Source: a bacterium
GTDB taxonomy: Bacteria; UBP6; UBA1177; JAKLFG01
Reading direction: 5' to 3'
Assembly (NCBI GenBank): GCA_022709425.1
Contig: JAKLIW010000001.1
Location: forward strand, 17,552 to 81,551
DNA length: 64,000 nt
Positions 4,861 to 63,448 of the stretch are shown here, piece by piece (within the stretch, counting starts at the first letter, position 1; every line of letters starts with the position of its first letter). Both the position numbers and the translations under genes were made by a program. The notes below the pieces were generated by a model. The model had not been told where the DNA came from. It was given only the letters and a program-made list of their open reading frames with translations, and ran no database searches.

Positions 4861-6276
4861 TTATCCTTCCGAGTGCTTGAAGACGAACGGATAGTTGACG
4901 ATAACGATACCGCCACCCTTTGGCGCTGGGAACCGGATCTTTTTGATCTGGTCCGCAACGCAACCCTCAACGTTCTCGTTCCCCATCGTGGAGCGCTGAA
5001 CCTTCGAACTGGAAACCTGCCCCGTCTTCGAGATGATGAAGTTGATGACTATCTTACCAAAAAGTTTTGGATCCTTGTTGAGTTCCTTTTCATAGCACCA
5101 ACGAATCTTGGCAAGGTTACGCTTGATATAGGCGTCGATGACCGCGCGATCGAGCGCGCCCATGATGACCGCCTGTCCGCCGCCTGCAGTAATAGCCGAG
5201 AGACCCTTACCGCCGATGCGGCCAGCCGCCATACCGTAGCCCATACCGCCCATACCGCCGCCGCCCCTCCCGCGGGTGCCCAAACCGCCGATACCGAGCG
5301 CATTTCCGCCGCCGCCGGTACCGAAACCTCTGGTCCCCAGACCACCGGAGCCGAACTGGTCGACGCCACTGATGCCGGTGACCGAGCCAAGAGTCTTATC
5401 CATGCCGGCACCCAGACCACCGCCGCCGAATATACGGTCAAAACTGGCCGCACCCGAAGAAAGAGCGCCCATGACGCCCGAACTCTGCGCGACCTTCTCA
5501 TCTAGGCCACGGCGGGCGGAACCCTGCGCATTGGCCACACGGCTCTTCTTGTCACCCACGCGCCCCTCTTCGCCAAGAGATTTTCTTTGCTGGGTGGCCT
5601 CGACCAATCCCTCTTTGGGCTTCTCGAGCTTGACCTTCTTTTCTTTCTCTAGATCCTCAACCTGAACATCATCCTGATTGCTTACGATCATGTTCGCAAA
5701 GCGGTTGTCGATCTCGAATATGTCGACCTCTATGGGCGGCGTTTCAACGATCATGTTCATGATGAAGAAACCGATGATAAAAGTGACCAACATTATGAGA
5801 ACCGAGGTCATCTCGCGATTCTCGATGAGCCCTGCCGGTTTCAGTTTTTCATGCGGGGTTTTCAATGCAACAACGGAAATATCACCAAACTCGAGAACGG
5901 CAAAATTATCAGCACCTATTTCGTAGCTTTTTTTCGCCAGAACCGTAGCAATATCCTTCTTTTCTTTTTTCTCTACGACATATCCCTTGAACCCCTCCTT
6001 GAGATTCAAGGTCATTTGATCGCCGACAACACTAATAAGTTCGAACGAATCCTCAGGGAAGGCACTCTCGTCGAACATAAGGTCGACCTTTTTTGGGTCG
6101 GTAGAAGAACCGACCACATACGCTTTCGTAACAACTCTACTCTCTCGCAAAGTGTTCGGCTTGAAGACGACCCTCACTTCCGGATCAAGCTTGCCGGAGA
6201 ACCCCTCGTTCACTGGGGGACGAGGAATCGGGGAGAGATCGTACAGCAGCCTTTTCTTCACATTCTCATTCGGCAT
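4861..6276 (-). CDS. AgmX/PglI (GltG/NfsG)-like TonB-family protein
   Basis: Single TM (VLIMLVTFIIGFFIMNMIV), a long Gly-rich segment (GGGGMGGMGYG...), and a C-terminus AVIDAYIKRNLAKIRWCYEKELNKDPKLFGKIVINF matching the AgmX/PglI C-terminal (TonB-C-like) signature. Confidence 0.7.
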   Translation of the reverse strand: MPNENVKKRLLYDLSPIPRPPVNEGFSGKLDPEVRVVFKPNTLRESRVVTKAYVVGSSTDPKKVDLMFDESAFPEDSFELISVVGDQMTLNLKEGFKGYVVEKKEKKDIATVLAKKSYEIGADNFAVLEFGDISVVALKTPHEKLKPAGLIENREMTSVLIMLVTFIIGFFIMNMIVETPPIEVDIFEIDNRFANMIVSNQDDVQVEDLEKEKKVKLEKPKEGLVEATQQRKSLGEEGRVGDKKSRVANAQGSARRGLDEKVAQSSGVMGALSSGAASFDRIFGGGGLGAGMDKTLGSVTGISGVDQFGSGGLGTRGFGTGGGGNALGIGGLGTRGRGGGGMGGMGYGMAAGRIGGKGLSAITAGGGQAVIMGALDRAVIDAYIKRNLAKIRWCYEKELNKDPKLFGKIVINFIISKTGQVSSSKVQRSTMGNENVEGCVADQIKKIRFPAPKGGGIVIVNYPFVFKHSEG

Positions 6277-6633: not shown

Positions 6634-7815
6634 TTAGTTCTGTGGTGCCTGTTCATCATCTGAAGGCCGAATCTTTACCTTGTCGGCGATATATTTATGA
6701 ACAATATGATCCTGTCCGATATCGCCGCCTATACTGAGATACTTTCTGAAAAGACTCTGCGCTTCCACCTTTTTGTTAAGATGGTCGTGATACAGTACGC
6801 CCAGATTAAAAACCGCAAGCGGGTTATTCGGATCCTTGTCAAGCACCTTCTTATATTCCGCTTCTGCTTCGGTAAAGTTGCCCATTCCACGATGAGCGAG
6901 CGCAAGACCGACGCGCGCATCCATATTGTCGGGATCCTGCGCAAGAACTATCGAAAAGTGTTGGAAAGCGCGTTCCGCATCGCCGTAAGACATGGCCATT
7001 GAGCCAACATTGAAGTTAGCCGCCTTATTGGCTTGGTCATTGTTGATCGCGCTGGTGTAGTAGAACATCGCGAGCGAATCGTCATTCTGATAGTGGAATA
7101 TTACTCCGCGGTTGTTCGAGATACCGGCATCGTTGGGATTCAGATTATAGGAGTTGGTCGTAACCATGTTCGCCAGACCGGTGTCTTTTTTGATCAGGTA
7201 GATCATGCCGAGGTTTTTGAGCGCGTCGACATTGGAAGGCTCCTGAATGAGTATCTTGCGGACCGACTCGATCGCCTTAAGAAAGTCGAGTTTCTTCAGA
7301 TAAAAACCGGCAACGGCTGAAAGAACCGCTTTATCCTTGGGGTTCTCCTCTAGGAATTTCTCACACACATCTATAGCGCGGTTGTATTCGAGTTTATTGG
7401 CGTAGATGGCCGCCTTGTTGATAACGGGACGCGCATAGGCCGGCTCTATCTGAAGTGCGGCGTTGTAGTTTTTCACCGCATTCTCGTCATCGCCCATCTG
7501 CTGATAAGCTAACCCCAGATTGAACCAAACGGTTGAAGACTTCGGATAGGCTTCCGCGGCAAAGGTAAAATGTCTTATGGCACCAGCGAAGTCAGCCTTG
7601 CCCTTTTTAACCTCAAGAGCATCTATCCCTTTTTGAGTGTGAAATTTCGCATATTCCTCGGGAGTGGTGGGGCGATCAGTAATCGAAAGACGCTTCTTTT
7701 CCGGTTCTTTTTTACCGGCATCCGCCTTTGCCTCTTGTGTCGATTTGCAAGACACCGCCAAAAAGAAAATCGCCAACACAATGGCTGCAAACAGGGTCGT
7801 TCTTTTCATCATCAT
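6634..7815 (-). CDS. TPR-repeat lipoprotein (GltE/NfsE-like)
   Basis: Lipobox (FFLAVSC) after MMMKRTTLF. Multiple TPR motifs (AYQQMGDDENAVKNYNAALQIEP, etc.). Confidence 0.6.
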   Translation of the reverse strand: MMMKRTTLFAAIVLAIFFLAVSCKSTQEAKADAGKKEPEKKRLSITDRPTTPEEYAKFHTQKGIDALEVKKGKADFAGAIRHFTFAAEAYPKSSTVWFNLGLAYQQMGDDENAVKNYNAALQIEPAYARPVINKAAIYANKLEYNRAIDVCEKFLEENPKDKAVLSAVAGFYLKKLDFLKAIESVRKILIQEPSNVDALKNLGMIYLIKKDTGLANMVTTNSYNLNPNDAGISNNRGVIFHYQNDDSLAMFYYTSAINNDQANKAANFNVGSMAMSYGDAERAFQHFSIVLAQDPDNMDARVGLALAHRGMGNFTEAEAEYKKVLDKDPNNPLAVFNLGVLYHDHLNKKVEAQSLFRKYLSIGGDIGQDHIVHKYIADKVKIRPSDDEQAPQN

Positions 7816-35844: not shown

Positions 35845-35930
35845 AAAAATCAAGGCTAACAATGACTATTTTTTGCGAAATATCAAGGCTAACAAGAGCC
35901 ATTTATCACGAAAAATAAAGGCTAACGACC
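35845..35930. repeat. three tandem ~33-bp imperfect direct repeats (core A(T/A)CAAGGCTAAC(A/G)A) in an AT-rich intergenic island
   Basis: aaaaatCAAGGCTAACAAtg... / aaatatCAAGGCTAACAAga... / aaaaataAAGGCTAACGAcc..., each unit ending in CG. The local AT content contrasts with the genome GC. Confidence 0.6.
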
Positions 35931-35954
35931 AAATTTCTATGCGCGAGGAACGGG

Positions 35955-36887
35955 TCAGAAGACCAGAGAACACCCGCAACCGCCGTCCTTCGGCTTCACC
36001 GTGTCGGCGTCGGACGTGACATTATCAATTAAAGAGTCATCGGTTATTGTTGAATCTTCGTCTGTCTCGGCGACCTCTTCGCATATGCCGGTATCCTCAT
36101 TGCATACGAAGCCGTCAGGACAGCCAAAAGCCACACAATCGTCCGAGAAAATCTCGCCACCACAATCCCTTTGTGAGGGCTCGTAGCATTCTGCCTTCGT
36201 CAGACAGACACCCTTATGCAGTCGGAGTGGAACGTTCCTGTTAGTACGATACCATGTATTTTCGTCGCTCCCCGCCTCTTTGATGATTGCCGAGTTGGAA
36301 ATGATGCGGTTCGCAGGGATGCCCTCTTTCGGTATCACCATGAAGCGGATCAGCAGACTATCCGCACAAAACCAAGTTGACTGATCACAGTATTCCATGT
36401 AATCGGCTACCTTATATCCTTCGCCCGCGAGAGGAAAAGTATAGTTCATCCCATCAGGTATCGGTTGCCATACACGATATACATTGACATTGTAGTTGTC
36501 TACATCGGTCGCTATCTCGGTCGTGCCGGGCACATACTCAAGGGCATCATCCAGTTCGTCAACAAGAGTAACATTGTATGCGATATCCCAACCCCAATTC
36601 TGGAGCTTAACAAGAAAATACATCGCTCGACCTTCGCACCATGCATCGGCAGGATCAGTGTTGGTTCGACAGGAACAGGATATTTTCTCGCGACCATCAG
36701 GCCAAGCGGTTGCGTTTTCGGGAATGTCGAAATTCACACCGAAGTCGACGATCATATCTTCGTCGTTCAGAAGCGCATCTTCGTCCGCCGCTCCGGCGAC
36801 CACCACCGGCAGGAGGACCGCCGCAAAAAGTACCGAGAACAACGCTTTGCCGGACATGCCCCACTCCCCTTTGAAAAGATAGCGCAT
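35955..36887 (-). CDS. secreted Cys-rich protein ending in C-terminal GCGCSLVF tag (310 aa)
   Basis: Signal peptide (ALFSVLFAAVLLPVVVAGAAD), 16 Cys, an acidic Asp/Thr linker, then ...TVKPKDGGCGCSLVF immediately followed by the stop codon. Confidence 0.6.
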   Translation of the reverse strand: MRYLFKGEWGMSGKALFSVLFAAVLLPVVVAGAADEDALLNDEDMIVDFGVNFDIPENATAWPDGREKISCSCRTNTDPADAWCEGRAMYFLVKLQNWGWDIAYNVTLVDELDDALEYVPGTTEIATDVDNYNVNVYRVWQPIPDGMNYTFPLAGEGYKVADYMEYCDQSTWFCADSLLIRFMVIPKEGIPANRIISNSAIIKEAGSDENTWYRTNRNVPLRLHKGVCLTKAECYEPSQRDCGGEIFSDDCVAFGCPDGFVCNEDTGICEEVAETDEDSTITDDSLIDNVTSDADTVKPKDGGCGCSLVF

Positions 36888-37012
36888 GATAGCACAACGG
36901 CTCCTCTTGTCAAAGGGAAAAATGCCCCTTTTCAGAAAAATTTGCGGCGGCCGATTCCTTTTGTTAGGATGCCCCCGTGGTCGATCACTAACAGTTCAGA
37001 TAGGAGTCACTC

Positions 37013-39070: not shown

Positions 39071-39610
39071 TTATCGCCTCTTCGGCAGACTCATGGTGGG
39101 TATCGGATCACCCGCCAACACTTCGTCCACATCGGGCAGTTCGACATCAGGCACTGCGTCGCCGGTCAGTATATCATCGTAATCAGGAACAATGACCTCG
39201 TCGGGTATCGGCGCACCACCAAGCTGTTCATCATAGTCCGACATCAGCGTATCGTCGGGTAGCGGCACATCGGGTATCGGCTCGCCACCCAACTCATCGT
39301 CGGCATCGGGCACCGCCGCATCATCAATCGGGAAATCGGGATCGGTCACCCCCTGCAGATCGGAGTAGTCGGGCTGATTCGTGTCGGGCTGATCAGTTGT
39401 ATCGACCGCGATCGAATCATCATCGGCCACCTGCACGCCGGTCGTTTCCACTTTATTCGTACAGCCGAATCCGCTGAAGAAGAAGAGGAACCCCACCACG
39501 AGGAAAAGGAACTTCAGCGGCCGCGCCTCAAGCCGCCCCGGACGGCGCCGTCCCACCGGATAACCGGGGTCGTAGCCGGTCACTTTGCGCACTTGGAAGT
39601 TCGTGTTCAT
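39071..39610 (-). CDS. membrane-anchored acidic tandem-repeat protein (DYD/PIPD repeats)
   Basis: Basic N-terminus, then a TM/lipobox-like FLFLVVGFLFFFSGFGC. After that come repeats such as LGGEPIPDVPLPDD / LGGAPIPDEVIVPDYDD / LTGDAVPDVELPDVDE / LAGDPIP. Confidence 0.5.
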   Translation of the reverse strand: MNTNFQVRKVTGYDPGYPVGRRRPGRLEARPLKFLFLVVGFLFFFSGFGCTNKVETTGVQVADDDSIAVDTTDQPDTNQPDYSDLQGVTDPDFPIDDAAVPDADDELGGEPIPDVPLPDDTLMSDYDEQLGGAPIPDEVIVPDYDDILTGDAVPDVELPDVDEVLAGDPIPTMSLPKRR

Positions 39611-39619
39611 GGCCTCACC

Positions 39620-40750
39620 TCACACAATGTCTATCGGTTCTATTTCCTTCTTATAATGCTTCCGCATGAAGACCGGGTTCTTTTCGGCGATGAGTTCGCG
39701 CGCCAGCCGGTCGGCTATCGGGATGAGCATCGATTCGTTGGCGCACAGCACACCCGGCACGGTGGTCATCTCGCCGGTCGTGTCCCAGTTGAGGCACGGG
39801 CAGTAGGTGAAGCACCGGCCGTCGAGCGAACAGCCCTGACAGTTGGTGCGCGGCTTCAGGTTCTCGGCCGCGATCTCGTGGCATTTCTTCATGATGAAGC
39901 CGGTGTCGACATGGCCCATCACGAACCCCGCCGCCCGCTCCGGCTTCCCGGCGAACCGGACGCACGGGAATATCCGGCCATCCTCGGCCACCGCGAAGAT
40001 GTTGCGCCCCACATCGCAGAAATCGCCGGGGCGGAAGCCGCCTTTGATATGCGCCGCGATATGAGCGTCGAAGAGCGAGTAGTAGAACAGATCCTTTTTG
40101 CGGGTCCGCGACCGTTCCAGATACCACTCGGCCAGTTTCTCGTACTGTTCTTTTAAGGTATAGAGCCCCGCCTCGTCCCACTTCGCGGTGTAGTCGACCA
40201 CCGGGACGAAGTTGCGGATGCCGAGGTCGTCCATGACATGGAGCGTCGAATCGTAGAGCCGATGCGCCGTCGCGGGAGAGACGACCGCCACCGCGACGAG
40301 GTGTTTCGCTTTTTTGTAGAGCGTCGGCAGGTGTTTGACGACGGCAGCGTAACTGCCGTGTCCGTCGTTGAAGGGGCGGTTCGCGTCCTGTGCCGCCGGG
40401 ACGCCATCGAGCGACAGTTCGACCGTCAGTTTCTTCTTCGCGATCCAGTCGATGATCTCGGGGGTGATGAGGGTCCCGTTGGTGGCGACATGGAGTTTGA
40501 GCGCGACGCCGAGTTTCTTCGCCTTCTTTTCGGCGTAGTCGGTCACTTCGCGCATGACATCGAACCGCAAGAACGGTTCGCCGCCGAAGAAGCTGATGCG
40601 CGCTTTCTTCTCCTCCACCGACTTCTCCAGAACGAGGTCGGCCGCCTTGAGCGCAACTTCTATAGGCATATGAGACTTCTCATGTTTCTCGACATAGCAG
40701 TAGGAGCATTTCAGGGTGCATTGGCGGGTCAGGAACAGGATCGCATGCAT
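39620..40750 (-). CDS. radical SAM / SPASM-domain peptide-modifying enzyme
   Basis: CxxxCxxC (RQCTLKCSYCYV) and a glycine-rich SAM motif (FFGGEPF). C-terminal auxiliary-cluster Cys pattern CQGCSLDGRCFTYCPCLNW...GVLCA (SPASM/twitch). Confidence 0.8.
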   Translation of the reverse strand: MHAILFLTRQCTLKCSYCYVEKHEKSHMPIEVALKAADLVLEKSVEEKKARISFFGGEPFLRFDVMREVTDYAEKKAKKLGVALKLHVATNGTLITPEIIDWIAKKKLTVELSLDGVPAAQDANRPFNDGHGSYAAVVKHLPTLYKKAKHLVAVAVVSPATAHRLYDSTLHVMDDLGIRNFVPVVDYTAKWDEAGLYTLKEQYEKLAEWYLERSRTRKKDLFYYSLFDAHIAAHIKGGFRPGDFCDVGRNIFAVAEDGRIFPCVRFAGKPERAAGFVMGHVDTGFIMKKCHEIAAENLKPRTNCQGCSLDGRCFTYCPCLNWDTTGEMTTVPGVLCANESMLIPIADRLARELIAEKNPVFMRKHYKKEIEPIDIV

Positions 40751-40817
40751 GGCTCACTCCAGCAAAGACGCCCCTTTAGTATAAGGAAAGGAAACCTTTT
40801 ATCAAAGAAATTAAACC

Positions 40818-42089: not shown

Positions 42090-42153
42090 AGCATCCTCCA
42101 TCGAACAGGTCCGGCCCTTTAGTATAAGGAAAGGGACTCTTTTATTGAAAAAC

Positions 42154-43686
42154 TTATTCGGCGACCCGCTTCATGAGCAGGATATCGGCAGATTCATCAT
42201 AGTAGAGCGCCTTATCGGCCTGCGGGCTGGACTGTCCGGTAAGATAGAGTTCTCCCGCCGGTCCGGCGATCACTGCGCCGGCGGTCTCGCTACCCGCATC
42301 ACCGTACAGTTTACTCCACAATTCGACCCCTTCGGCGCTCCATGCCGAAAGAAAGATATCGGCGCCGCCCGCGTTGACCAGAGCATCCCAGACTCCGTAG
42401 GTATGACCCGTCACGAATATCGTTCCCGCATCGTCGATGGTCATGCCGAAGGCCTGTTCGTTGAGCGCGCTACCCCACTGCACCATCCATATCTCACTCC
42501 CGTCAGTGGGATCGATCTTGGAAAGGAACAGGTCGCTTCCCCCCTGAGAACTGCTTCTGTCGAGAGAACCGGAGGTCCCGGCGACATAGACATAACCATT
42601 CCGCGCTACGACCGCTGCCGTGGTCATCGCGCCGCCATCCGGGGTTATCCGCGTCGTCCATTGTTCGATACCGTCGGAGCTCAGCTTGGTAACGAAGGCG
42701 TCATATATCAAATCGCCGGTATTGAGCGGCATGTGCAGATCGATGTTGCCGGCGACATACACCGAACCCGCGTCATCGACCGTCACCGCACTACCGCTAT
42801 CGGCCGCGCCGGTCCCCCATTGCCGGGTCCAGAGTTTGGTCCCCGCCGCATCCCATTTGGTCAGGAAGATATCGCTGCACGGCGGCGCTCCGTAGCCCGA
42901 ATCGCACAGATCGTCCCGCTGGAGCGTGTTGCCGTCGAGCGAACCGTGGGTGTCCCCGGTGACATAGAGTGCGCCGGCACCGTCGATCGCTATGCTGCGG
43001 CCATAGTCCTCCGCAGTCTCCACACCCCACGACCGCATCCAAAGCGACGAACCGTCGGCCGCCCATGCACCAACAAAGATGTCGGGGCAGGGATACAGGT
43101 GACGACCATAGCCGCAGGTATGCAGAGGAGGCTCCGATCCATCGAGCGGCCCGGCGGCCCAACCGGCCACATAAATGGTCCCGTTACCGCCGACCGCCAC
43201 GGCGGCGGCGTTGTCATCATTCTGCGAACCGAACTGCCGGGCCCACACCGGTGTGCCGTCGGAACGCCAATGGGCGATGACCGCGTCGCTGAGACCGACA
43301 CGCGTATTGCCGTCGAGGGTGCTCCACGTCGCACCGGCGACATAGATATCCTCTGCGCCCTTCAGCGCCAATGCGTTACCCACATCGTACGAATCGCTCC
43401 CCCAGCGCACCGTCCACGATTCATCGGAGCCGAAGCCCTCGGCATCGGGAAGTTCACCCCCCTCGCTCAGCAAATCGTCACCCTCGTTTAACAGCGCATC
43501 GCCCTCGCTCAACAACTGATCGCTTTCGCCCGGGTCATCGCCCGACAACATGCTATCGGCATCCTCCGACGCCGCATCGGTATCGACGATAGCGGCATCA
43601 CTATCGGCGGCGTTTTGGGTGGTCGAATTATCACAAGAGATCAGGCCGCAGAGCACAACTACAAAAAGCATTAGGATCTTTTGCAT
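42154..43686 (-). CDS. beta-propeller repeat lipoprotein (SBBP/delta-60-like repeats)
   Basis: Lipobox VVVLCGLISCDNS and an acidic linker. About 8 repeats of the pattern G.iYVAG.t.GsLDG...Gg.DiFl.KwdadGt.lWt.qwG.. Confidence 0.55.
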   Translation of the reverse strand: MQKILMLFVVVLCGLISCDNSTTQNAADSDAAIVDTDAASEDADSMLSGDDPGESDQLLSEGDALLNEGDDLLSEGGELPDAEGFGSDESWTVRWGSDSYDVGNALALKGAEDIYVAGATWSTLDGNTRVGLSDAVIAHWRSDGTPVWARQFGSQNDDNAAAVAVGGNGTIYVAGWAAGPLDGSEPPLHTCGYGRHLYPCPDIFVGAWAADGSSLWMRSWGVETAEDYGRSIAIDGAGALYVTGDTHGSLDGNTLQRDDLCDSGYGAPPCSDIFLTKWDAAGTKLWTRQWGTGAADSGSAVTVDDAGSVYVAGNIDLHMPLNTGDLIYDAFVTKLSSDGIEQWTTRITPDGGAMTTAAVVARNGYVYVAGTSGSLDRSSSQGGSDLFLSKIDPTDGSEIWMVQWGSALNEQAFGMTIDDAGTIFVTGHTYGVWDALVNAGGADIFLSAWSAEGVELWSKLYGDAGSETAGAVIAGPAGELYLTGQSSPQADKALYYDESADILLMKRVAE

Positions 43687-47898: not shown

Positions 47899-48379
47899 CA
47901 TGACGAAAGGTTTTTACAAACTCATGTGCTTCGCGACGGCCGCCGCGATGTCGATCATCGGTTGCGGCCCCGAGAACGATCCTCCGCTCGAGTACGGCCC
48001 CGGTCCGACCGATTACGATCAGTACCAGACCGACAACGACGAATACACCGACGCCACCAAATACGGTATCGCCGACACCGATTTCGCACCGGCCGACGCC
48101 GACGAACCGATCATCTCCGACGACCCAGCCATGGAATACGGCCCGGTACAGACCGACTACGATAATTTCCCCAGCGACTTCGACACCCTTTACGGCCCCC
48201 CCGACACCGATTACGCCGACGCCGACGAACCGATCATCTCCGACGACCCAGCCATGGAATACGGTCCGGTGCAGACCGACTATGACGAACTGGCGACCGA
48301 CGCCGACGCGATCATCGAACAGCCCGACGAAATGACCACCGACTACGGCCCGATATCGCGGCCCTTCGTCAAGAAATGA
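47899..48379 (+). CDS. acidic tandem-repeat lipoprotein (EYGPxxTDYD repeats)
   Basis: Lipobox MSIIGCGPEN. Repeats ...EYGPGPTDYDQYQTDNDEYTDA... plus two near-identical 123-nt units (48092-48214 / 48215-48337) encoding ADADEPIISDDPAMEYGPVQTDYD. The stop overlaps the next gene's start. Confidence 0.55.
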
Positions 48380-49464
48380 GCATCAAGCGCGTCGCCAAGC
48401 GGGCGCTGCTCCCCTTAAAACAGCACTACGAGCGGAAACTCCATGAATTGCGCTACATCTTCTTTGAGTTGACCCACCGCTGCAATATCGCCTGCATCCA
48501 CTGCGGTAGCGACTGCCAGAAGAACGACACCCTGCCCGACCTCCCCGCCGACAAGATACTCGAGACGCTCGACGGCATCAAGACGAAGTACGATTCCCAC
48601 AAGGTGATGATCGTCCTCTCGGGCGGCGAACCGACGATATATCCCGGCGTCTGGGACCTCGGCAAGGAGATCATCAAGCGCGAATTCCCGTGGGGGATGG
48701 TCACCAACGGCTACGCGTGGGACACCGAGATGATCAAGAAGGCCAAAGAGGCGCGGATGCATTCGGTCACCGTATCGCTCGACGGCCTTGAAGAGACCCA
48801 CAACTGGCTGCGCGGCGACAAAAAATCGTTCCGCAAAGCGGTGAACGCCATAGAACTGCTCCTCAAGAACCCCTTCTACCGCGTGATGGATGTCATCACC
48901 TGCGTCAACAAGCGCAACATCGGCGAACTCGATAAGATATACGACCTCGTGAAATCGATGGGGCTCAAACGGTGGCGCTTCTTCACCATCTCCCCCATTG
49001 GCCGCGCGGTGCAGACCCCGGATCTGTTCCTCGGCAAAGAGGATTTTCATTATCTCATGCAGAAGATAATCGCCTACCGCAAAAAGCCGGGGATGAAGGT
49101 CACCTACTCCGAATCGGGCTATCTCGGCTGTTACGAACACCGCGTCCGCGGCCACGACTGGTTCTGCCGCGCCGGGGTCAATGTCGCGGGGATCATGGTC
49201 AACGGCGATATACTCGCCTGCCCCAATATCGACCGCCGCTTCAAGCAGGGCAATGTCTTCGAACAGCCATTCATCGATGTCTGGGAGCACGGCTACAAGG
49301 AATTCCGCGACCGCAAATGGATGCGGACCGGCGACTGCGTGAAGTGTCCCGAATGGCGGCTGTGTCAGGGAAATCCGATGCACCTGTGGGACCTCGACAC
49401 CAACCGAACGAAGCTCTGCCATCTGAAGCAGTTCGAACTCGACCGGCCGATCGTCGGCACATGA
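48376..49464 (+). CDS. radical SAM / SPASM-domain peptide-modifying enzyme (second copy, different subfamily)
   Basis: CxxxCxxC (HRCNIACIHCGSDC), SAM glycine motif (LSGGEPT), and C-terminal SPASM Cys cluster (CRAGVNVAGIMVNGDILACPNI...GDCVKCPEWRLCQGNPMH). Confidence 0.8.
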   Translation: MSIKRVAKRALLPLKQHYERKLHELRYIFFELTHRCNIACIHCGSDCQKNDTLPDLPADKILETLDGIKTKYDSHKVMIVLSGGEPTIYPGVWDLGKEIIKREFPWGMVTNGYAWDTEMIKKAKEARMHSVTVSLDGLEETHNWLRGDKKSFRKAVNAIELLLKNPFYRVMDVITCVNKRNIGELDKIYDLVKSMGLKRWRFFTISPIGRAVQTPDLFLGKEDFHYLMQKIIAYRKKPGMKVTYSESGYLGCYEHRVRGHDWFCRAGVNVAGIMVNGDILACPNIDRRFKQGNVFEQPFIDVWEHGYKEFRDRKWMRTGDCVKCPEWRLCQGNPMHLWDLDTNRTKLCHLKQFELDRPIVGT

Positions 49465-49543
49465 CAAAAAACTGAAAAAAATCTGGTTTTTTTTGTCCGA
49501 AAAGGCATTATGCGTCGATTGTTTTTTTGAGCACCGTCGCCCT

Positions 49544-49618
49544 ATGAAGAATCGCCTGCTCGCGCTGGTCAAACGGACCGTCACCAGCAACGGCTGCGGC
49601 TGTTCGGTGTTGTTCTAG
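49544..49618 (+). CDS. 24-aa peptide MKNRLLALVKRTVTSNGCGCSVLF (candidate RiPP precursor / tag-only ORF)
   Basis: ATG 80 nt downstream of the SPASM gene stop. Ends in the same GCGCS-hydrophobic-F C-terminus as the 310-aa and 968-aa proteins. The first 12 codons and the upstream leader are duplicated at 53258-53374. Confidence 0.4.
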   Translation: MKNRLLALVKRTVTSNGCGCSVLF

Positions 49619-49702
49619 GGCGCAATTCTCTTCGGAAAATCACCTCCGTCTTGACATCATATCGTCCGTTGGTACAATGGGCCGGAACCGGGAGAGGGAC
49701 CG

Positions 49703-50014
49703 ATGAAACTCGCCGACATCTTGGACGCCATTGCCAAAGAACATTACCGGGTCACCGAACACGCCGATGACGAGGCGCAGAACGACCGGCTTTTGTACGA
49801 GGACATCTTCGAGTCGGTCCTGCACGGCGAGATCATCGAGGAATACCCGAAAGACAAGCCCTGTCCGAGCATCCTCATAGCGGGAAAGAACTACCGCGAA
49901 GAGCCGATACATTCGGTGTGGGGATACAACGAAGAGAACGGGTACGCGATACTCATAACGGTGTATCGTCCCGATCCGAAGCGGTGGATAGAGAACAAGA
50001 AGCGGAGGAAATAG
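49703..50014 (+). CDS. DUF4258-family toxin-like protein
   Basis: 103 aa with ...HADDEA...EEYPKDKPCPSILIAGKNYREEPIHSVWGYNEENGYAILITVYRPDPKRW, matching the DUF4258 consensus (HVV...VITVY.PD..W). Followed 2 nt later by a YgiT zinc-finger gene. Confidence 0.6.
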   Translation: MKLADILDAIAKEHYRVTEHADDEAQNDRLLYEDIFESVLHGEIIEEYPKDKPCPSILIAGKNYREEPIHSVWGYNEENGYAILITVYRPDPKRWIENKKRRK

Positions 50015-50016
50015 CC

Positions 50017-50259
50017 ATGCTTCCTTTCAAAAAATGTCCGACCTGCGGCGGCGCCGTGGTGAAGAAAGAGGTCGAGAAGATCGTCAAGGGCGGTAACGAC
50101 ACCGCCGTGCTCAAGGTGGTCGCCGAGGTCTGCGAGAAATGCGGTGAGCGACTTTACACACCGGCGCAGGTGAAACGGTTCGAAGCGTTCCGCAAGATGC
50201 TGTTCCAGAAAAAGCCGGTCGGGCTTAAAGCGGTCGGCCGCTCCTATGTCACGGCATAA
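50017..50259 (+). CDS. YgiT-type zinc-finger protein (MqsA-family antitoxin-like)
   Basis: MLPFKKCPTCGGAVVKK...VVAEVCEKCGERLYTP: a CxxC...CxxC zinc ribbon typical of the YgiT/MqsA N-terminal domain. 80 aa. Confidence 0.6.
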   Translation: MLPFKKCPTCGGAVVKKEVEKIVKGGNDTAVLKVVAEVCEKCGERLYTPAQVKRFEAFRKMLFQKKPVGLKAVGRSYVTA

Positions 50260-50324
50260 TCGACTTCATCTTTCAATTTGACAATCTTTCCGATTTCTGA
50301 TTAAATCCAGCAGAATATCTTTCA

Positions 50325-53231
50325 TTGAACCGGGGGCGGGCCGTGCGGAACATACTTCTTGCGATGATCGGGCTGATGCTTGTCGCGTGCGGCGGCGAGA
50401 TGCCGTCGGCCGACGGGCCAGCCACCGCCAACCTCACCCCGCCCGAATTCGCATGGGAAGAAGAAGCGCCGGTAGGTGGTTTCGACAGTCCATCCGCCCG
50501 CTACGCCGTTCCCGGCGATGAGCGGTGGGTGTCGATGAATCCGGAAATACCGGGGACGGATGGTACGATATACGCTATGGCGCGGCATGGCGATTATCTC
50601 TACATCGGTGGCTCTTTTACTATCGTGAAGGATATTGTGGCGAACCGGATAGCACGACTCACGATCTCAACCGGTCAGTGGAGCGCACTCGGAAGCGGGA
50701 TGGATGGTACTGTATATTCTCTTGTGGTGGATGGCACGGGCAATCTCTATGCCGGCGGGTACTTTGCCACTGCGGACGGAATAATAGTGAACCGCGTCGC
50801 GAAATGGGATGGCACAGCATGGAGCGCGCTGGGGACCGGGATGGATAGCGCGGTGTATGCCCTTGCGGTGGATGGCGATGGTACCCTCTATGCCGGTGGT
50901 GATTTCACGACGGCGGGCGGGGTGTCGGCGAACCGTATTGCAAAATGGAATGGCACCCAGTGGGGTACCATCAATAATGGGATGAATGGTGGTGTTTATT
51001 CTCTAGTATTGGATGGGAATGGTAATCTCTATGTTGGAGGATACTTCACCACGGCGGATGGTGTGGCGACAAATCGCATCGCAAAATGGGACGGTGCTGC
51101 ATGGAGCGCACTCGGGAGCGGTATGAGCGACTCCGTCCGCGCCCTTGCGATAGATGGCGAGGGCACCCTTTACGCTGGCGGAAAATTCAAGACGGCGGGA
51201 GGGGTGTCGGCCAATAGGATCGCGAAATGGGACGGCACCTTATGGAGCGCACTCGGGATCGGGATAACCGATATTGGTGTTGACCCGTGTGTGTATACCA
51301 TTACGGTGGCCGGTGACGGGACCCTCTATGCTGGCGGTGATTTCACGACGGCAGATGGAATGACGGCGAAATATATCGCGAAATGGGATGGTACGATTTG
51401 GAGTGCAGTTGATAGTGGGATGAATGACCATGTCAAAATCCTTGTGATTGCCGGTGATGGCACCCTCTACGCCGCCGGCTCTTTCACGACGGCAGGTGGA
51501 GTGACAGCGAATCGTATAGCTCAGTGGGATGGCTCTTCTTGGTTTTCTCCTGGGTATGGTGTGAGCAACCCTGTCCATGCTCTTACATTTGATGATGTGA
51601 GCAACCTCTTTCTTGGCGGATACTTTACCCACGCGGGTGGGGTGGCCGCGAACCGCATCGCCAAGTGGGACGGCGCGACTTGGAGTCCTCTTGGGGGGGG
51701 AATGGATAAATTTGTCGAATCTCTTGCGTTAGATGCAGGTGGCAATCTCTACGCTGGAGGGAAGTTTGACACCGCAGGTGGGGTGTTGGTAAATCGTATC
51801 GCGAAATGGGACGGTGCCGAATGGATAGCCCTCGATAGTGGGATGACGGGAGAAGACCCGGGAGTCTTTGCCCTCGCGTTAGATGATACGGATAATCTTT
51901 ACGCCGGAGGAGGATTTATCACTGCGGGCGGGGTGGCGGCGAAACACATTGCAAAATGGGACGGCACGGTGTGGAGCAACCTCGGGAACGGGATGGATGC
52001 TTATGTTTATGCCCTTGTAATGGATGATGCGGGAAATCTTTACGCCGGAGGAAGCTTCACCACTGCGGGCGGAGTGGCGGCGAAATACATCGCGAAATGG
52101 GACGGGACCTCGTGGAGTGCCCTTGGAAGCGGGATGGATAAGTATGTCAATACCCTTGTATTCGATGATGCTGGGAATCTCTATGCCGGCGGAGGTTTTA
52201 CCACCGCAGGCGGGGTGACGGCGAACCGCATTGCCAAATGGGATGGAGTCGAATGGAGCGCATTGGGAACAGGGGTAAATAACTATGTCCGCATATTGAC
52301 AGTTGATGGAACAGGCAATCTCTACGCCGGAGGAGGTTTCACTATAGCGGGCGGTGTAACGGCAAATTACATTGCAAAGTGGAATGGTATCGCATGGAGT
52401 GCCCTCGGTGGTGGGATGAATAATAGTGTTGAAAGCCTTGCGATTGACGGGAATGGTGATCTATATGCCTGTGGATTCTTTACGACGGCTGGCAACAAAT
52501 TAAGTCCTTATATCGCCAAGTACATACTCTCCGACGAAGACCCCGTCACTCCCGACGATGATGTCCTCCTCTCCGAAAGCGATGCTGTCACCTCTGACGA
52601 TGACGCTCTCCTCGCCGAAAGCGAATCTCTGTTGACGGAGGACGACACGGTCATCATCATAACTGACACCGTGATCGAGCCCGACGATGCGGTCATTCTC
52701 CCCGACGAGGACTCTGTGATCGAACCCGATGACGAAGATGCTTACCCCGAGGTTTACCACCCCGACACTTTCTACGAGATCGACCCGGTCGACGAAATAT
52801 CAGTGCCCGATGAAGTAGTGGACGACATCCAGCCGGACGAACCCGTCGCCGATGATGTGGTCGACGAGACGGTCGATGCCACGCCGGACGATTACTACGA
52901 GATAGACGCTGTTGACGAGATATCGGTCCCCGACGACACCGTTGACGATACCCCCGATGAAGACACGACGGTCAGCGCCGACACGAACGATGCCGCAACG
53001 GACGAAGATACTGCGCAACCGGATGAAACAACGGACCAAACGAGCGACACTGCCACCGACACCTTCCAACCTGACGAAACGGTTGATGAATCCGTTGATG
53101 CGACGACCGACGAAAGCATCGACGGCACCATCGATGACGATTCTCCGCTCACGACTCACGATTCACTGATCACCGACACCGACACCACCAAGCCTACCGG
53201 CAACGGCTGTGGATGTTCCCTCGCCTTCTAG
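50325..53231 (+). CDS. large beta-propeller repeat lipoprotein (968 aa) with acidic C-terminal repeats ending in the GCGCSLAF tag
   Basis: Lipobox LMLVACGGEM. About 17 repeats of LYAGG.FTTAGGV.ANRIAKWDGT.WSALGSGM (delta-60/SBBP-like). C-terminal acidic YEIDxVDEISVPD repeats, then ...DTDTTKPTGNGCGCSLAF followed by the stop codon. Confidence 0.65.
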   Translation: MNRGRAVRNILLAMIGLMLVACGGEMPSADGPATANLTPPEFAWEEEAPVGGFDSPSARYAVPGDERWVSMNPEIPGTDGTIYAMARHGDYLYIGGSFTIVKDIVANRIARLTISTGQWSALGSGMDGTVYSLVVDGTGNLYAGGYFATADGIIVNRVAKWDGTAWSALGTGMDSAVYALAVDGDGTLYAGGDFTTAGGVSANRIAKWNGTQWGTINNGMNGGVYSLVLDGNGNLYVGGYFTTADGVATNRIAKWDGAAWSALGSGMSDSVRALAIDGEGTLYAGGKFKTAGGVSANRIAKWDGTLWSALGIGITDIGVDPCVYTITVAGDGTLYAGGDFTTADGMTAKYIAKWDGTIWSAVDSGMNDHVKILVIAGDGTLYAAGSFTTAGGVTANRIAQWDGSSWFSPGYGVSNPVHALTFDDVSNLFLGGYFTHAGGVAANRIAKWDGATWSPLGGGMDKFVESLALDAGGNLYAGGKFDTAGGVLVNRIAKWDGAEWIALDSGMTGEDPGVFALALDDTDNLYAGGGFITAGGVAAKHIAKWDGTVWSNLGNGMDAYVYALVMDDAGNLYAGGSFTTAGGVAAKYIAKWDGTSWSALGSGMDKYVNTLVFDDAGNLYAGGGFTTAGGVTANRIAKWDGVEWSALGTGVNNYVRILTVDGTGNLYAGGGFTIAGGVTANYIAKWNGIAWSALGGGMNNSVESLAIDGNGDLYACGFFTTAGNKLSPYIAKYILSDEDPVTPDDDVLLSESDAVTSDDDALLAESESLLTEDDTVIIITDTVIEPDDAVILPDEDSVIEPDDEDAYPEVYHPDTFYEIDPVDEISVPDEVVDDIQPDEPVADDVVDETVDATPDDYYEIDAVDEISVPDDTVDDTPDEDTTVSADTNDAATDEDTAQPDETTDQTSDTATDTFQPDETVDESVDATTDESIDGTIDDDSPLTTHDSLITDTDTTKPTGNGCGCSLAF

Positions 53232-53257
53232 GATGCTGACAAGCCGCTGACCGCAAA

Positions 53258-53374
53258 ATGACGAAAACTGAAAAAAATCTGGATTTTTTTGTCCGAAAAG
53301 GCATTATGCGTCGATTGTTTTTTTGAGCACCGTCGTCCTATGAAGAATCGCCTGCTCGCGCTGGTCAAACGGAC
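53258..53374 (+). repeat. 117-118-nt direct repeat (second copy; first copy 49461-49578): shared leader + start + first 12 codons (MKNRLLALVKRT)
   Basis: ATGAC(A/G)AAAACTGAAAAAAATCTGG(A)TTTTTTTGTCCGAAAAGGCATTATGCGTCGATTGTTTTTTTGAGCACCGTCG(C/T)CCTATGAAGAATCGCCTGCTCGCGCTGGTCAAACGGAC. About 98% identical. The copies diverge immediately after GGAC. Confidence 0.7.
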
Positions 53375-55223
53375 ACCATTGTCATTCGTCATCGTTTTTG
53401 CACTTTTCTTCTTTGACTACGCCTCGTTCCTGACACGCGCCGGGGTCATCCATCCGACCTTCGCCCTTTTCGACATCGTCGTCATCCTCGGCAGTCTGTG
53501 CGGCGCGCTTCTTCTCTGGTTCATCATCGGAACACTCCTTTCCATCGGACCGCGCTCCTATCTGGTTCTTTTTTCCATCTATATTTTCTTTTATCATCTG
53601 TTCGGCACTTACCGTTTCCGCTCGAAGATACCCTTCGACGTCTCGGTCATGATGGATAACTCCGGCGAGGCATGGAACTCTGAGTCGCTCATCGTGATAC
53701 TCGACAGCCTCAGTCTTCATGTCCTCCTCATCGGGATCGCCCCACTGCTCGCGGTCCTCTTCATCCCGCCGTTACGAAGACTGGTGATGCGGGAACGGCA
53801 GTACGGAGCTCGCCGCTATATCGCGGCCGCCGCGGCCATCCCGCTCTATGGGTGGCTTATGCTCAGCCCCTTTGCGCTCCACGACGATCTGGGCGCGGTG
53901 CTCCGTTCGGTCCACGACTATGTTCGGCGCGACAGCCTCTATCAGACCGACAAGAACACCGATCCCGACACCTATCCCTTTATCACCAACGAGAACATGG
54001 CCTTGTCGCCCGGAAATACCGGAAAGAGATCACACATCTTCATCGTCGAGATAGAATCCTTCTCCAAAGCGGTTGTCGAGACCACCACTCCCGACGGACG
54101 TCCCTATACGCCGTATCTGAACGAAAAGATCAAAGAAGGTCTCTATTTTGAACGGTTCTATGCCAATTCCATCCAATCGGCAAAAGGACAGTTCGCGACG
54201 CTCTTCTCGATCATCCCGAGTTTCAAGCAAAAGGTTTTCACCAGTTTCCGGCATGTCCAGTTCCAGTCGCTACCGCAGGTCCTGCGGGATAACGGCTACT
54301 CCACCTTCTTCTTCAAGGCATACCGCGACATCAACTTCGACAACACCGGCCGGTTCGTCACGAAGAACGGCGTCGAGACCGCGCTGTCCATCGTCCCCTT
54401 CTTGACGCCGGAAGACAAACAGCGGATGTGGGGTTGGGGTATCGAGGACGAGATATTCTTCAAACGGTTCTTCGAGTATCTCGACACCCGTGAAGAGGTC
54501 GTGTCGGGACAGAAGCCGGTATTCGCCCTGCTCCACACCGTCATGAACCATATGCGGTTCAACGAGGTGCCGGTCGAAAAACGCCGTCTCTATCCCGACG
54601 CCAAGAATCTGCCCGAACACTATGCCAACAGCATCCGCCTGACCGACGAACAGCTCCACTTCTTCTTCGATGAACTGGCGAAGCGGCCGTATCTGAAGGA
54701 TGCCATCGTCATCGTCACCGGCGATCACAGCTATCCGCTCAACGAACACGGCTACCAACATAACGAAACGGCATGGTATGAGGAATTCTTCCGCACCCCG
54801 TTCCTTCTCATCGCGCCGGGCCGATTCAAGCCGGGTCGCATCACCGACAAAGCCTATCAGCAGATAGATATCGCGCCGACCCTCTTGGAGCTGGTCGGCA
54901 TCAAACCGAAACGTCACCACTTCCGCGGCGTTTCGATGTTCGCCGCCAAACCGCAGCAACCGATATATCTCGTTCAGCCCTACAACGGCATTTATCTCGG
55001 GGTGATCGAAGGCGGACGCTATAAATATGTTACTCACCTGCGCAGCAAGCGTGAGTTCCTCTACGATCTGAAGGTCGATCCCAAAGAAGAGAAGAATCTC
55101 GCCGGCGAGGCCGGACCGGCGTTCAAAAATCACCTGAACGGACTCTTGCAGACGATCTACCTGAACCAGAAACTCATCGAGAGCGACCGGGTCTGGAAAC
55201 CGCTCGACAGCGGCAAGAAATGA
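53339..55223 (+). CDS. LtaS/MdoB-like sulfatase-family (alkaline phosphatase superfamily) membrane protein
   Basis: N-terminal 4-5 TM segments, then an extracytoplasmic sulfatase-fold domain (...SIQSAKGQFATLFS..., VIVTGDHSYPLNEHGYQHNE). Start MKNRLLALVKRT lies within the duplicated leader. Confidence 0.65.
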
Positions 55224-56323
55224 TGCCCAAGGAACTGAAGCCGAAAAAAGGTGCGGCCAACTGGAAAGCGCTTTTCTTCATCGCCTTCGGCGCCCTGATC
55301 GCGGTGTCGGCGCTGTCGCTCTTCTGCCGCCCCGGCGCTTCCGATTCTCCCTCCACAACCCCGCAGATCGCCCCTGAGCCGCCAACCGCCGGACCAGCCT
55401 CCGCGCCATCTATAGCGGCCCCGCAACCGATCCCGGCCACCCCGCAGACCGCCACGCCGCCGACGCCCGAGAAGAAGAACGACACCTACGCGCTGACGGT
55501 GAAGATATCGGCTTCGTTCTACAACACCTTCGCCGACGATCCCGAGATAGCGCGCATCGCCGCCGAAACGGGGAAAAAGCGGCTTGCCGAACTGCTGTCG
55601 GCCCATGTGTCGCGCAACCTCATCTGGAGCCTCGACATGCGCCGCGAGGTCTATCCGGGCGACGAGATGAAACTGCTCTTCCGCGTCATATCGCCCGAAG
55701 AACAGGCCAAACGGGCCGACACGCCCGACGAGATCGAACTGCTCGCGATGCAGTACCGGTCGATACGGCTCGGCAAGGAGATCCGTTTCTATCAGTTCAA
55801 GTCATCCGACCGGAAATTCCCCGCCTTCTACCACGCCGACGGCACGGCGGTCGAAAAGACGCTTAAAAAATCACCGCTGAAAGAGTGGATACAGATCACC
55901 TCACTCCTCAAGGATCGCCGCCCGCGCCACGACGGACTCGATTTCAAGGCGCCGGTCGGCACGCCGATATACGCCCCATGGAGCGGCACGGTCGAAAAGA
56001 CCAACTGGAAGACCCGCTACAACGGCTATTCGCTCCTCGCGCGGGTCGACAGCCAGCCGGCGGTGCAGATGCTCCTGCTCCATCTCGACAAGGTCCACCT
56101 GAAGCCGGGGCAACGCTTCGCGGCGGGCGACCATATCGCCGACGTGGGCAATACCGGCCGCTCGTTCGCCCCTCACCTGCACTATCAGTTGCAGCACGAG
56201 GCGAAAAAGATCATCGACCCGATCAAATTCCACGGCACCGTGGCCGCAAAACTTCCGGCGGCCGACGCCGATGCCTTCCAGAAGGTCGTTCAGCGTTTCG
56301 ACGCACTGATGGGAAACAAATAA
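55220..56323 (+). CDS. M23-family metallopeptidase (LytM-like) with N-terminal TM and Pro/Ala-rich linker
   Basis: HDGLDFKAPVGTPIYAPWSGTV ... GNTGRSFAPHLHYQL (HxxxD and HxH Zn motifs of M23). Start overlaps the upstream gene's stop (ATGA). Confidence 0.75.
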   Translation: MMPKELKPKKGAANWKALFFIAFGALIAVSALSLFCRPGASDSPSTTPQIAPEPPTAGPASAPSIAAPQPIPATPQTATPPTPEKKNDTYALTVKISASFYNTFADDPEIARIAAETGKKRLAELLSAHVSRNLIWSLDMRREVYPGDEMKLLFRVISPEEQAKRADTPDEIELLAMQYRSIRLGKEIRFYQFKSSDRKFPAFYHADGTAVEKTLKKSPLKEWIQITSLLKDRRPRHDGLDFKAPVGTPIYAPWSGTVEKTNWKTRYNGYSLLARVDSQPAVQMLLLHLDKVHLKPGQRFAAGDHIADVGNTGRSFAPHLHYQLQHEAKKIIDPIKFHGTVAAKLPAADADAFQKVVQRFDALMGNK

Positions 56324-61562: not shown

Positions 61563-61658
61563 CTCCGAGCCCGGATTCCTGCAGCCGCTTGATCGGTATG
61601 GATACCGGGACGACAAGGTATGGGGCGAAAGGCCCATGCCTCCCTTTTGGAAAGGAGG
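61563..61658 (+). promoter_or_regulatory. conserved structured 5' leader element, copy 1 (upstream of pruA); copy 2 at 63356-63448
   Basis: Shared blocks in both copies: CTCCGAGCCCGGA, CCTG(C/A)AGCCG, AAGGTATGGGG, CGAAAGGCCC, and CCTCCCTTTTGGAAAGGAG (an SD-containing inverted repeat). Each copy has a different internal hairpin insertion. The element ends at the RBS/ATG. Confidence 0.4.
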
Positions 61659-63355: not shown

Positions 63356-63448
63356 CTCCGAGCCCGGAACCCCTGAAGCCGAAAAGGTATGGGGACGGGC
63401 CGACAGGGCGCGGTGCCGAAAGGCCCGCACCTCCCTTTTGGAAAGGAG
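63356..63448 (+). promoter_or_regulatory. conserved structured 5' leader element, copy 2 (upstream of uORF + LTD lipoprotein gene)
   Basis: Same conserved blocks as 61563-61658. Followed by ATG at 63454 opening a 15-codon uORF (MRFCTYPLNNELWGG) whose TAA stop is embedded in the main gene's GGAGGATAAGATCATG RBS. Confidence 0.4.

Follow-up and report, generated by a model that had tools for sequence, protein, structure and literature searches.

A short reading frame beside a radical SAM/SPASM gene is probably a rearrangement scar that joins a sulfatase leader to the end of a GCGCS-tagged lipoprotein gene

Ribosomally synthesized and post-translationally modified peptides (RiPPs) of the sactipeptide, ranthipeptide and SCIFF types pair a precursor with a maturase of the radical S-adenosylmethionine (rSAM)/SPASM kind, and chimeric open reading frames (ORFs) and gene remnants are known from illegitimate recombination junctions in bacteria. 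A C-terminal G-C-G-C motif on secreted proteins is described for the MYXO-CTERM signal (TIGR03901), which is processed by myxosortase. MYXO-CTERM often has a second cysteine, giving the GCGC motif (Haft 2023 preprint, 10.1101/2023.06.07.544157). Here we analysed 64,000 nucleotides (nt) from a bacterium of the GTDB lineage UBP6; UBA1177; JAKLFG01 (assembly GCA_022709425.1, contig JAKLIW010000001.1, positions 17,552 to 81,551), hereafter the window, in which a 24-amino-acid (aa) ORF ending in a GCGCS motif follows an rSAM/SPASM gene directly. The original prediction, made from the letters alone, left two readings of this ORF: a genuine short precursor, or a recombination scar in which the 5′ end of a sulfatase gene has been fused to the 3′ end of a gene that carries a GCGCS tag. 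Genome comparison supports the second reading almost literally. The short ORF is probably a rearrangement scar, that is, a recent, lineage-specific junction and not a conserved gene, and we put the probability of this at roughly 0.8.

The two sides of the junction have different, identifiable parents. The first 12 residues of the short ORF are the cytoplasmic N-terminus of a membrane-anchored sulfatase encoded further downstream. The remainder is the end of another gene: positions 49570-49632 are identical at 58 of 63 nt (92%) to positions 5178-5239 of L157 (L-numbers label the related loci and metagenome contigs compared with the window). The match takes in the final 16 codons of a full-length gene for a PAD-like lipoprotein of 524 aa and runs on for 13-14 nt past its stop. 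This gene, called geneX below, gives a Pfam PAD_porph hit (2.7e-44, agmatine-deiminase type) and ends in GKRAVTNDGCGCSVLF (in a longer stretch, VPDSGKRAVTNDGCGCSVLF) directly before its stop; a homolog in L131 is 73% identical and has the C-terminus GKRAISTGCGCSLMF. L157 was among the matches when metagenome contigs were scanned for tagged genes with the pattern GGN TGY GGN TGY TCN NTN NNN TTY plus a stop codon. In an alignment of the three sequences anchored at CAAACGG, the short ORF matches the sulfatase gene through GTCAAACGGAC and the L157 gene from CAAACGG.CCGTCACC onward. Both parents, the sulfatase gene and geneX, contain CAAACGG, and the crossover is placed within this 7-nt microhomology. 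Relatives with the parental arrangement do not have the junction, and no other part of the geneX body was found within the 64-kb window.

Other origins of the tail were considered and rejected. Copying from the tagged ~960-aa lipoprotein upstream of the sulfatase (called BIG) or from an unrelated tagged 310-aa protein of the window is not compatible with the DNA, which shows no similarity past the motif codons. An ancestral rSAM gene with a GCGCS tail is disfavoured by the 0 of 120 homologs that end in such a tail and by the far better match of geneX in L157. In our own comparison of the sequences, the post-junction stretch GACCGTCACCAGC resembles the rSAM tail of L005, GACCATCACCAAG.

The 5′ part of the short ORF belongs to a repeat whose second copy lies at the sulfatase gene. 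Global alignment of 49461-49578 with 53258-53374 gives 114 identical positions of 118 (96.6%), with three substitutions and one 1-nt indel. The original prediction had put the identity at ~98% over 118 nt; both copies exist where it placed them, and 98% is the figure for the gapless part (49468-49578 against 53264-53374), the full-length value being the lower one. Past GGAC the two copies part ways in the alignment, as had been noticed. A repeat-derived 27-mer occurs exactly twice in the window and in none of 100 shuffles, and the pair is the sole dispersed long repeat within the 64 kb. Copy 1 starts inside the last two rSAM codons, provides the rSAM stop codon (TGA, 49462-49464) and ends at codon 12 of the short ORF, and copy 2 comprises the leader of the sulfatase-family gene (ATG at 53340) together with its codons 1-12.

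The direction and age of the duplication follow from two relatives, L005 and L098, whose sulfatases are 75% and 76% identical to that of the window (76% also for L099). Both have a homologous leader at the sulfatase gene only, with no second copy in the DNA fetched, and both keep the sulfatase N-terminus, MK(N/T/D)(R/K)LL(A/G)L.KR(T/I)P followed by a membrane helix, so that copy 2 is the ancestral one. The L005 leader is 84% identical to copy 1 over a 56-nt stretch (blastn); because the two copies in the window are far more alike than that (96.6%), the duplication took place after L005 had split off. Recent recombination within the genome, as claimed in the original prediction, is correct, with copy 1 young and copy 2 ancestral. 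In the 5′ flank of copy 2, an 11-nt insert, GACAAGCCGCT (53238-53248, plus strand), has no counterpart in L005 or L098; it equals the rSAM 3′ codons D-K-P-L of L005 and L010, where the window's own rSAM gene has GACCGGCCG. Its presence suggests that the two repeat sites exchanged sequence, or that a paralogous donor was involved.

An assembly or binning artefact, in the form of a chimeric join at the repeat, has to be considered for a metagenome assembly, since a repeat of ~118 nt could mislead short-read assemblers and one short contig (Logan) does stop within it. However, three long contigs of the same strain (18-208 kb; JGI twice, ENA/NCBI once), from other samples and sources, span the region base for base identically, with unique flanks at both junctions. 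Because the identical sequence occurs in four independent assemblies of the strain, the window's included, the repeat is not an assembly artefact, and an erroneous join is hardly credible as an explanation. The short ORF (49544-49618) is called as a gene in none of the assemblies.

Copy 1 sits at a point where related genomes also diverge. The window was compared by blastn with L005, L010, L011 and L012, whose rSAM proteins are 96%, 94%, 94% and 86% identical to the window enzyme. With all four, homology ends at window positions 49449-49452, just past the rSAM codons L-D-(R/K)-P (positions 6711, 6074, 3295 and 1064 of the relatives, respectively), and the last 3-10 rSAM residues and all downstream sequence differ genome by genome. 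Because the close relatives all lose homology at the same point, the rSAM 3′ end is a recurrent breakpoint, and the rearrangement in the window removed the rSAM gene's own 3′ end. Downstream of rSAM, L010, L011 and L012 have unrelated DNA. In L005 the rSAM stop is followed by 87 nt and then by BIG, and homology to the window is back at 50277, in the BIG promoter, which places the window-specific segment at 49453-50276. Relative to L005 this segment is an 824-nt insert that contains leader copy 1, the geneX stub, a promoter and a toxin-antitoxin pair. Both L005 and L098 keep the order BIG-leader-sulfatase without the short-ORF junction.

The absence of the short ORF from related loci bears directly on the two readings. 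The original prediction had named related genomes that carry the SPASM-downstream region without a GCGCS-ending ORF as an outcome that would favour a scar, and this is the outcome obtained: relatives with 86-96% rSAM identity have no such ORF downstream. Across ~95 related rSAM loci, the number of start-codon-bearing GCGCS ORFs downstream of rSAM is zero; L005, L006, L010-L021, L090-L095 and 80 genome loci all lack one. Under the precursor reading, the peptide would be acted on by the neighbouring rSAM/SPASM enzyme or by the machinery that processes the GCGCS tag; its gene would have been born by fusion and have taken its start signals from the sulfatase. This would suit an intact ORF directly after a SPASM enzyme, with two cysteines in a motif conserved elsewhere and an inherited, working start region, and a GCGCS remnant is also found after rSAM in three distant relatives (L007-L009, see below). 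This reading nevertheless finds no support in the closest relatives, which lack the ORF, or in the tail, which is a remnant of a 524-aa gene; moreover, tagged proteins are exported whereas a signal peptide is missing here, tagged genes show no linkage to those for rSAM enzymes, and the enzyme itself points to another partner. We regard a genuine precursor as very unlikely.

The rSAM enzyme matches NCBIfam TIGR04133 over its full length (391.5 bits, E = 3e-117, below the cutoff of 425), and many of its homologs bear the JGI name 'radical SAM enzyme (rSAM/lipoprotein system)'. Pfam detects only Radical_SAM (residues 31-192) and SPASM (264-325). Because the rSAM domain begins at residue 31, the 30 residues before the core are too few for a leader-recognition domain at the N-terminus, and sequence profiles detect no domain of the RiPP recognition element (RRE) type. 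A small lipoprotein gene directly upstream of rSAM has equivalents at the same place in L005, L006, L007, L010, L090, L091, L093 and L095 and, on visual inspection, in the majority of the 80 genome loci. The protein carries repeats of the (E)YG.P..DYD type, and in close relatives it ends in TDYGPIS.PF.KK. The arrangement fits an rSAM/lipoprotein system. The genes downstream of rSAM differ in every genome. The upstream lipoprotein is, judged by this gene order, the conserved partner of the rSAM family and likely its substrate; the enzyme would act on it, and the short ORF would not be needed. In the window the partner lipoprotein is built of (D)DPAMEYGPVQTDYD modules (48092-48328), which include a 123-nt tandem repeat, and among relatives the copy number and protein length vary widely (78-248 aa). 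The likeness to RiPP pairs is therefore that a short, cysteine-containing ORF adjoins a SPASM enzyme. The differences are that this ORF is not conserved with the enzyme, that the enzyme has no leader-recognition domain and probably belongs to an rSAM/lipoprotein system, in which a lipoprotein of roughly 80-250 aa encoded upstream is the partner, and that what looks like a 'leader' is a membrane enzyme's N-terminus. Literature searches on TIGR04133 and on GCGCS found nothing relevant.

The original prediction had also placed the SPASM enzyme and GCGCS-tagged proteins in one module. Such a link is not borne out: the conserved partner of the enzyme is the upstream lipoprotein, no rSAM homolog was found in 28 metagenome loci with tagged genes, and no GCGCS tail was found in the 80 genome loci fetched for rSAM homologs.

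In the window, a leader copy sits at the broken rSAM 3′ end and is linked through CAAACGG to what is left of geneX, its final 13 codons and the 3′ flank. The scar would have arisen by microhomology-mediated illegitimate recombination. By one possible route, the geneX body was deleted and the gap filled by template switching from the leader ~3.8 kb downstream; by another, a tandem duplication reaching from the geneX end to sulfatase codon 12 was followed by deletion. In either case the fusion would by accident have left a start codon in frame with an old stop codon, and thus an open ORF. Lacking a signal peptide, any product of this ORF would remain cytoplasmic, and it probably would serve no function. 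Like the known illegitimate-recombination junctions, the locus has two identified parents, a crossover within 7 nt of microhomology, one parent cut down to a 3′ stub, a young and lineage-specific origin, and a toxin-antitoxin cassette within the variable segment. It differs in that an open frame survives here; by coupling a working start region to a conserved tag, this frame looks like a small gene beside an enzyme that modifies peptides.

Several points weigh against interpreting the ORF as a scar. It is intact and keeps the translation-start context of the sulfatase, including an upstream ORF (uORF), and the stretch from the rSAM stop to the short ORF showed no terminator, so that the peptide could be made. 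All strain copies are identical, and hence give no population view of constraint. The proposed order of events does not seem to account for the 11-nt rSAM-like insert beside copy 2 or for the rSAM codons ATCGTCGGC. Within the source genome, the search for geneX covered the 64-kb window, as did that for further leader copies; a degenerate 42-nt leader pattern had no match in the metagenome contigs, a collection that apparently does not contain the source genome. Finally, in L007 (6660-6707; also in L008 and L009), from an AT-rich genome and with an rSAM only 67% identical to the window enzyme, a frame reading PAKENHSGCGCSLI and then a stop lies 36 nt past the rSAM stop. This frame has no start codon and is preceded by a TGA 9 codons before its first cysteine; a rough estimate puts the chance expectation of such a tail remnant at about 1e-3 to 1e-2, and its occurrence hints at a recurring link of the rSAM locus with the ends of tagged genes.

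The short ORF could also be a newborn micro-gene, in which the rearrangement supplied a translation start to a minimal GCGCS-hydrophobic-hydrophobic-F tag and whose expressed 24-aa cytoplasmic peptide acts as a decoy or competitor for the reader of the tag, or serves as an opportunistic substrate of a cysteine-modifying radical SAM enzyme. The remnant in L007-L009 would in that case stem from a recurrent functional link and not from coincidence; we give this possibility very little credence. With the scar as the favoured interpretation, the locus is a caution that a short ORF resembling a RiPP precursor beside a SPASM enzyme can prove, on genome comparison, to be a rearrangement junction. The short ORF is not to be annotated or followed up as the precursor of a natural product. 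The useful side results are the pairing of rSAM with an EYGxPxxDYD lipoprotein and a C-terminal tag, GCGCS-[LV]x-F-COOH. Coordinates of the features are collected in Table 1.

Table 1. Features of the window discussed in the text (positions counted from the first letter of the 64-kb stretch).
Feature	Position	Strand	Remarks
Unrelated 310-aa secreted protein	35955..36887	-	Ends in GGCGCSLVF, then stop; 13 kb from the rSAM locus; homologs with the same tail in L184, L185 and L213
Small lipoprotein, EYGxPxxDYD repeats	47900..48379	+	Lipobox IIGC; ends in TDYGPISRPFVKK; directly upstream of rSAM
Radical SAM/SPASM enzyme, rSAM/lipoprotein-system type (TIGR04133-like)	48376..49464	+	Last 1-2 codons and TGA come from leader copy 1
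Leader copy 1	49460..49578	+	Young duplicate of the BIG-sulfatase intergenic leader and sulfatase codons 1-12; ~119 nt; not at this place in L005, L010, L011 or L012
uORF, 6 codons, MRRLFF then stop, copy 1	49510..49530	+	Read from the sequence
Chimeric 24-aa ORF	49544..49618 (stop 49616-49618)	+	MKNRLLALVKRT joined to VTSNGCGCSVLF, then stop; full peptide MKNRLLALVKRTVTSNGCGCSVLF
CAAACGG, 7-nt microhomology	49570..49576	+	Crossover point, from three-way comparison of sulfatase 5′ end, short ORF and L157 gene end
geneX 3′ remnant (PAD_porph-family GCGCS-tagged lipoprotein)	49570..49632	+	Last codons, stop and 13-14 nt of 3′ flank
Strong sigma-70-type promoter	49651..49678	+	TTGACA, 16 nt, TACAAT, with upstream TG; before the toxin-antitoxin pair
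Toxin-antitoxin-like pair	49703..50259	+	DUF4258 protein 49703-50014; YgiT/MqsA-type zinc finger 50017-50259
BIG, ~960-aa lipoprotein	50343..53231	+	Beta-propeller repeats, acidic linker; ends in KPTGNGCGCSLAF, then stop; L005 and L098 orthologs have an identical tail
Leader copy 2	53258..53374	+	Original; homologous leader and N-terminus at the orthologous sulfatase in L005 and L098
uORF, copy 2	53306..53326	+	Read from the sequence
Membrane-anchored sulfatase-family (LtaS-like) gene	53340..55223	+	Pfam Sulfatase 1.7e-39
M23 peptidase gene	55220-56323	+	Directly after the sulfatase

The sulfatase leader, with its palindrome and uORF, may be a regulatory leader. Two of its blocks are kept across three species, AAAAAAA(T/G)CTGGATTTTT, which is palindromic, and AGGCAT(G/T)ATGC(A/G)TC, which begins the uORF. 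The AT-rich palindrome AAAAAAATC-TG-GATTTTTTT (53271-53290 in copy 2, 49475-49494 in copy 1) is kept in L005 and L098, and a related uORF overlaps the sulfatase ATG in L098 and is in frame with it in L005. The possibility that the leader is a known RNA element or a promoter was rejected, as no Rfam family matches it at E<=1 and nothing in it resembles a sigma-70 site. The conservation of these blocks raises the possibility that copy 1 was retained as a cis-regulatory element, an operator or attenuator formed by palindrome and uORF that brings the downstream genes under sulfatase-like control, the ORF being incidental. In copy 1, however, the palindrome is broken by a GGA to GGT change at 49487, one of only three substitutions between the copies, and the next genes have a strong promoter of their own. 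The lack of an Rfam family or promoter-like site and the absence of the arrangement from relatives also argue against it, and retention for a regulatory role seems unlikely.

The GCGCS tag would be the more rewarding lead; it recurs in an uncultured lineage. About 29 distinct long ORFs (125-1030 codons) for secreted proteins or lipoproteins on metagenome contigs with 52-66% G+C end in GCGCS-[LV]-[VMAIL]-F, and GCGCS is invariant in the 32 tails collected (~29 of them bona fide). The tagged loci are those within L104-L215 (~29 loci), together with L098, L005 (9860-9899) and two places in the window (53190-53231 on the plus strand and 35955-35990 on the minus strand). All complete bona fide tagged proteins have a signal peptide, and a sequence like PDTDT.KPKD[DN] comes before the tag, as does an acidic linker. 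Three species (window, L005 and L098) share the amino acids of the BIG tail; because it differs only by synonymous changes, the tag itself is functional. The short ORF has neither a signal peptide nor a linker before the tag, and is not a normal client of the tag machinery for that reason.

No NCBIfam model, TIGR03901 included, matches the tag even at E<=10. The tag shares with MYXO-CTERM a C-terminal G-C-G-C motif on secreted proteins, but MYXO-CTERM is tripartite (motif, transmembrane helix and arginine cluster), whereas the GCGCS tag ends four residues past the second cysteine (serine, two hydrophobic residues and phenylalanine) and has neither a helix nor a basic cluster. It may be a so far undescribed signal for sorting or anchoring. 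The 310-aa secreted protein on the minus strand shows the tag in use apart from the rSAM locus; just past the stop of its gene lie three tandem 33-nt units (AAAAATCAAGGCTAAC..., 35845-35943).

The rest of the window-specific segment is taken up by the promoter and the pair of genes that follows it. Searches against Pfam and NCBIfam identify the first product as a DUF4258 protein (3.3e-21) and the second as a YgiT-type zinc finger protein (5.1e-10, with weak MqsA-family matches); as two small adjacent genes, they are a predicted type II toxin-antitoxin pair. The pair is not in the syntenic L005 locus. A look-up of the toxin returned an exact match only at the same locus, and the nearest homolog outside the strain is 65% identical. 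No donor of the toxin-antitoxin cassette and tail could be traced, this nearest homolog giving no donor context. The TTGACA...TACAAT block after the stub resembles blocks found after geneX in L157 and after rSAM in L005. Similar promoter and ribosome-binding-site (RBS) blocks (TTGACAATC(A/T)TTCC... and GAACCGGGGGCGGG) occur at 50277-50345 and 49624-49702 of the window, at 6756-6825 of L005 and at 5227-5300 and 6642-6676 of L157, preceding different secreted-protein genes in several genomes, as though one 5′ cassette were being reused.

On the plus strand, the gene order around the junction is extracytoplasmic function (ECF) sigma factor, FecR-like protein, two lipoproteins, rSAM/SPASM enzyme, leader copy 1 with the short ORF, promoter, toxin-antitoxin pair, BIG, leader copy 2, sulfatase and M23 peptidase. 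The order BIG (with its KPTGNGCGCSLAF end), leader, sulfatase and M23 peptidase is kept in L005 and L098/L099, and the sulfatase-M23 pair is kept in L005, L098 and L102.

Elsewhere in the window, a second radical SAM/SPASM enzyme is encoded on the minus strand (39620-40750) and is nearest to PapB-type ranthipeptide maturases (228 bits, cutoff 340). It is followed by a gene for an acidic protein of 179 aa (39071-39610, minus strand) with ...GFGCTNK... after a hydrophobic stretch, and a serpin gene and an SBBP-repeat gene adjoin this locus. A 45-nt element (CGCCCCTTTAGTATAAGGAAAGG...) is present three times at 62-82% identity (36899-36943, 40769-40813 and 42112-42156), in intergenic gaps by minus-strand genes, and its minus strand reads like a promoter and RBS. 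Lastly, a 32-nt repeat, CGAAAGGCCC..CCTCCCTTTTGGAAAGGAG, occurs at 61626-61657 and 63417-63448, 1.8 kb apart and with 91% identity.

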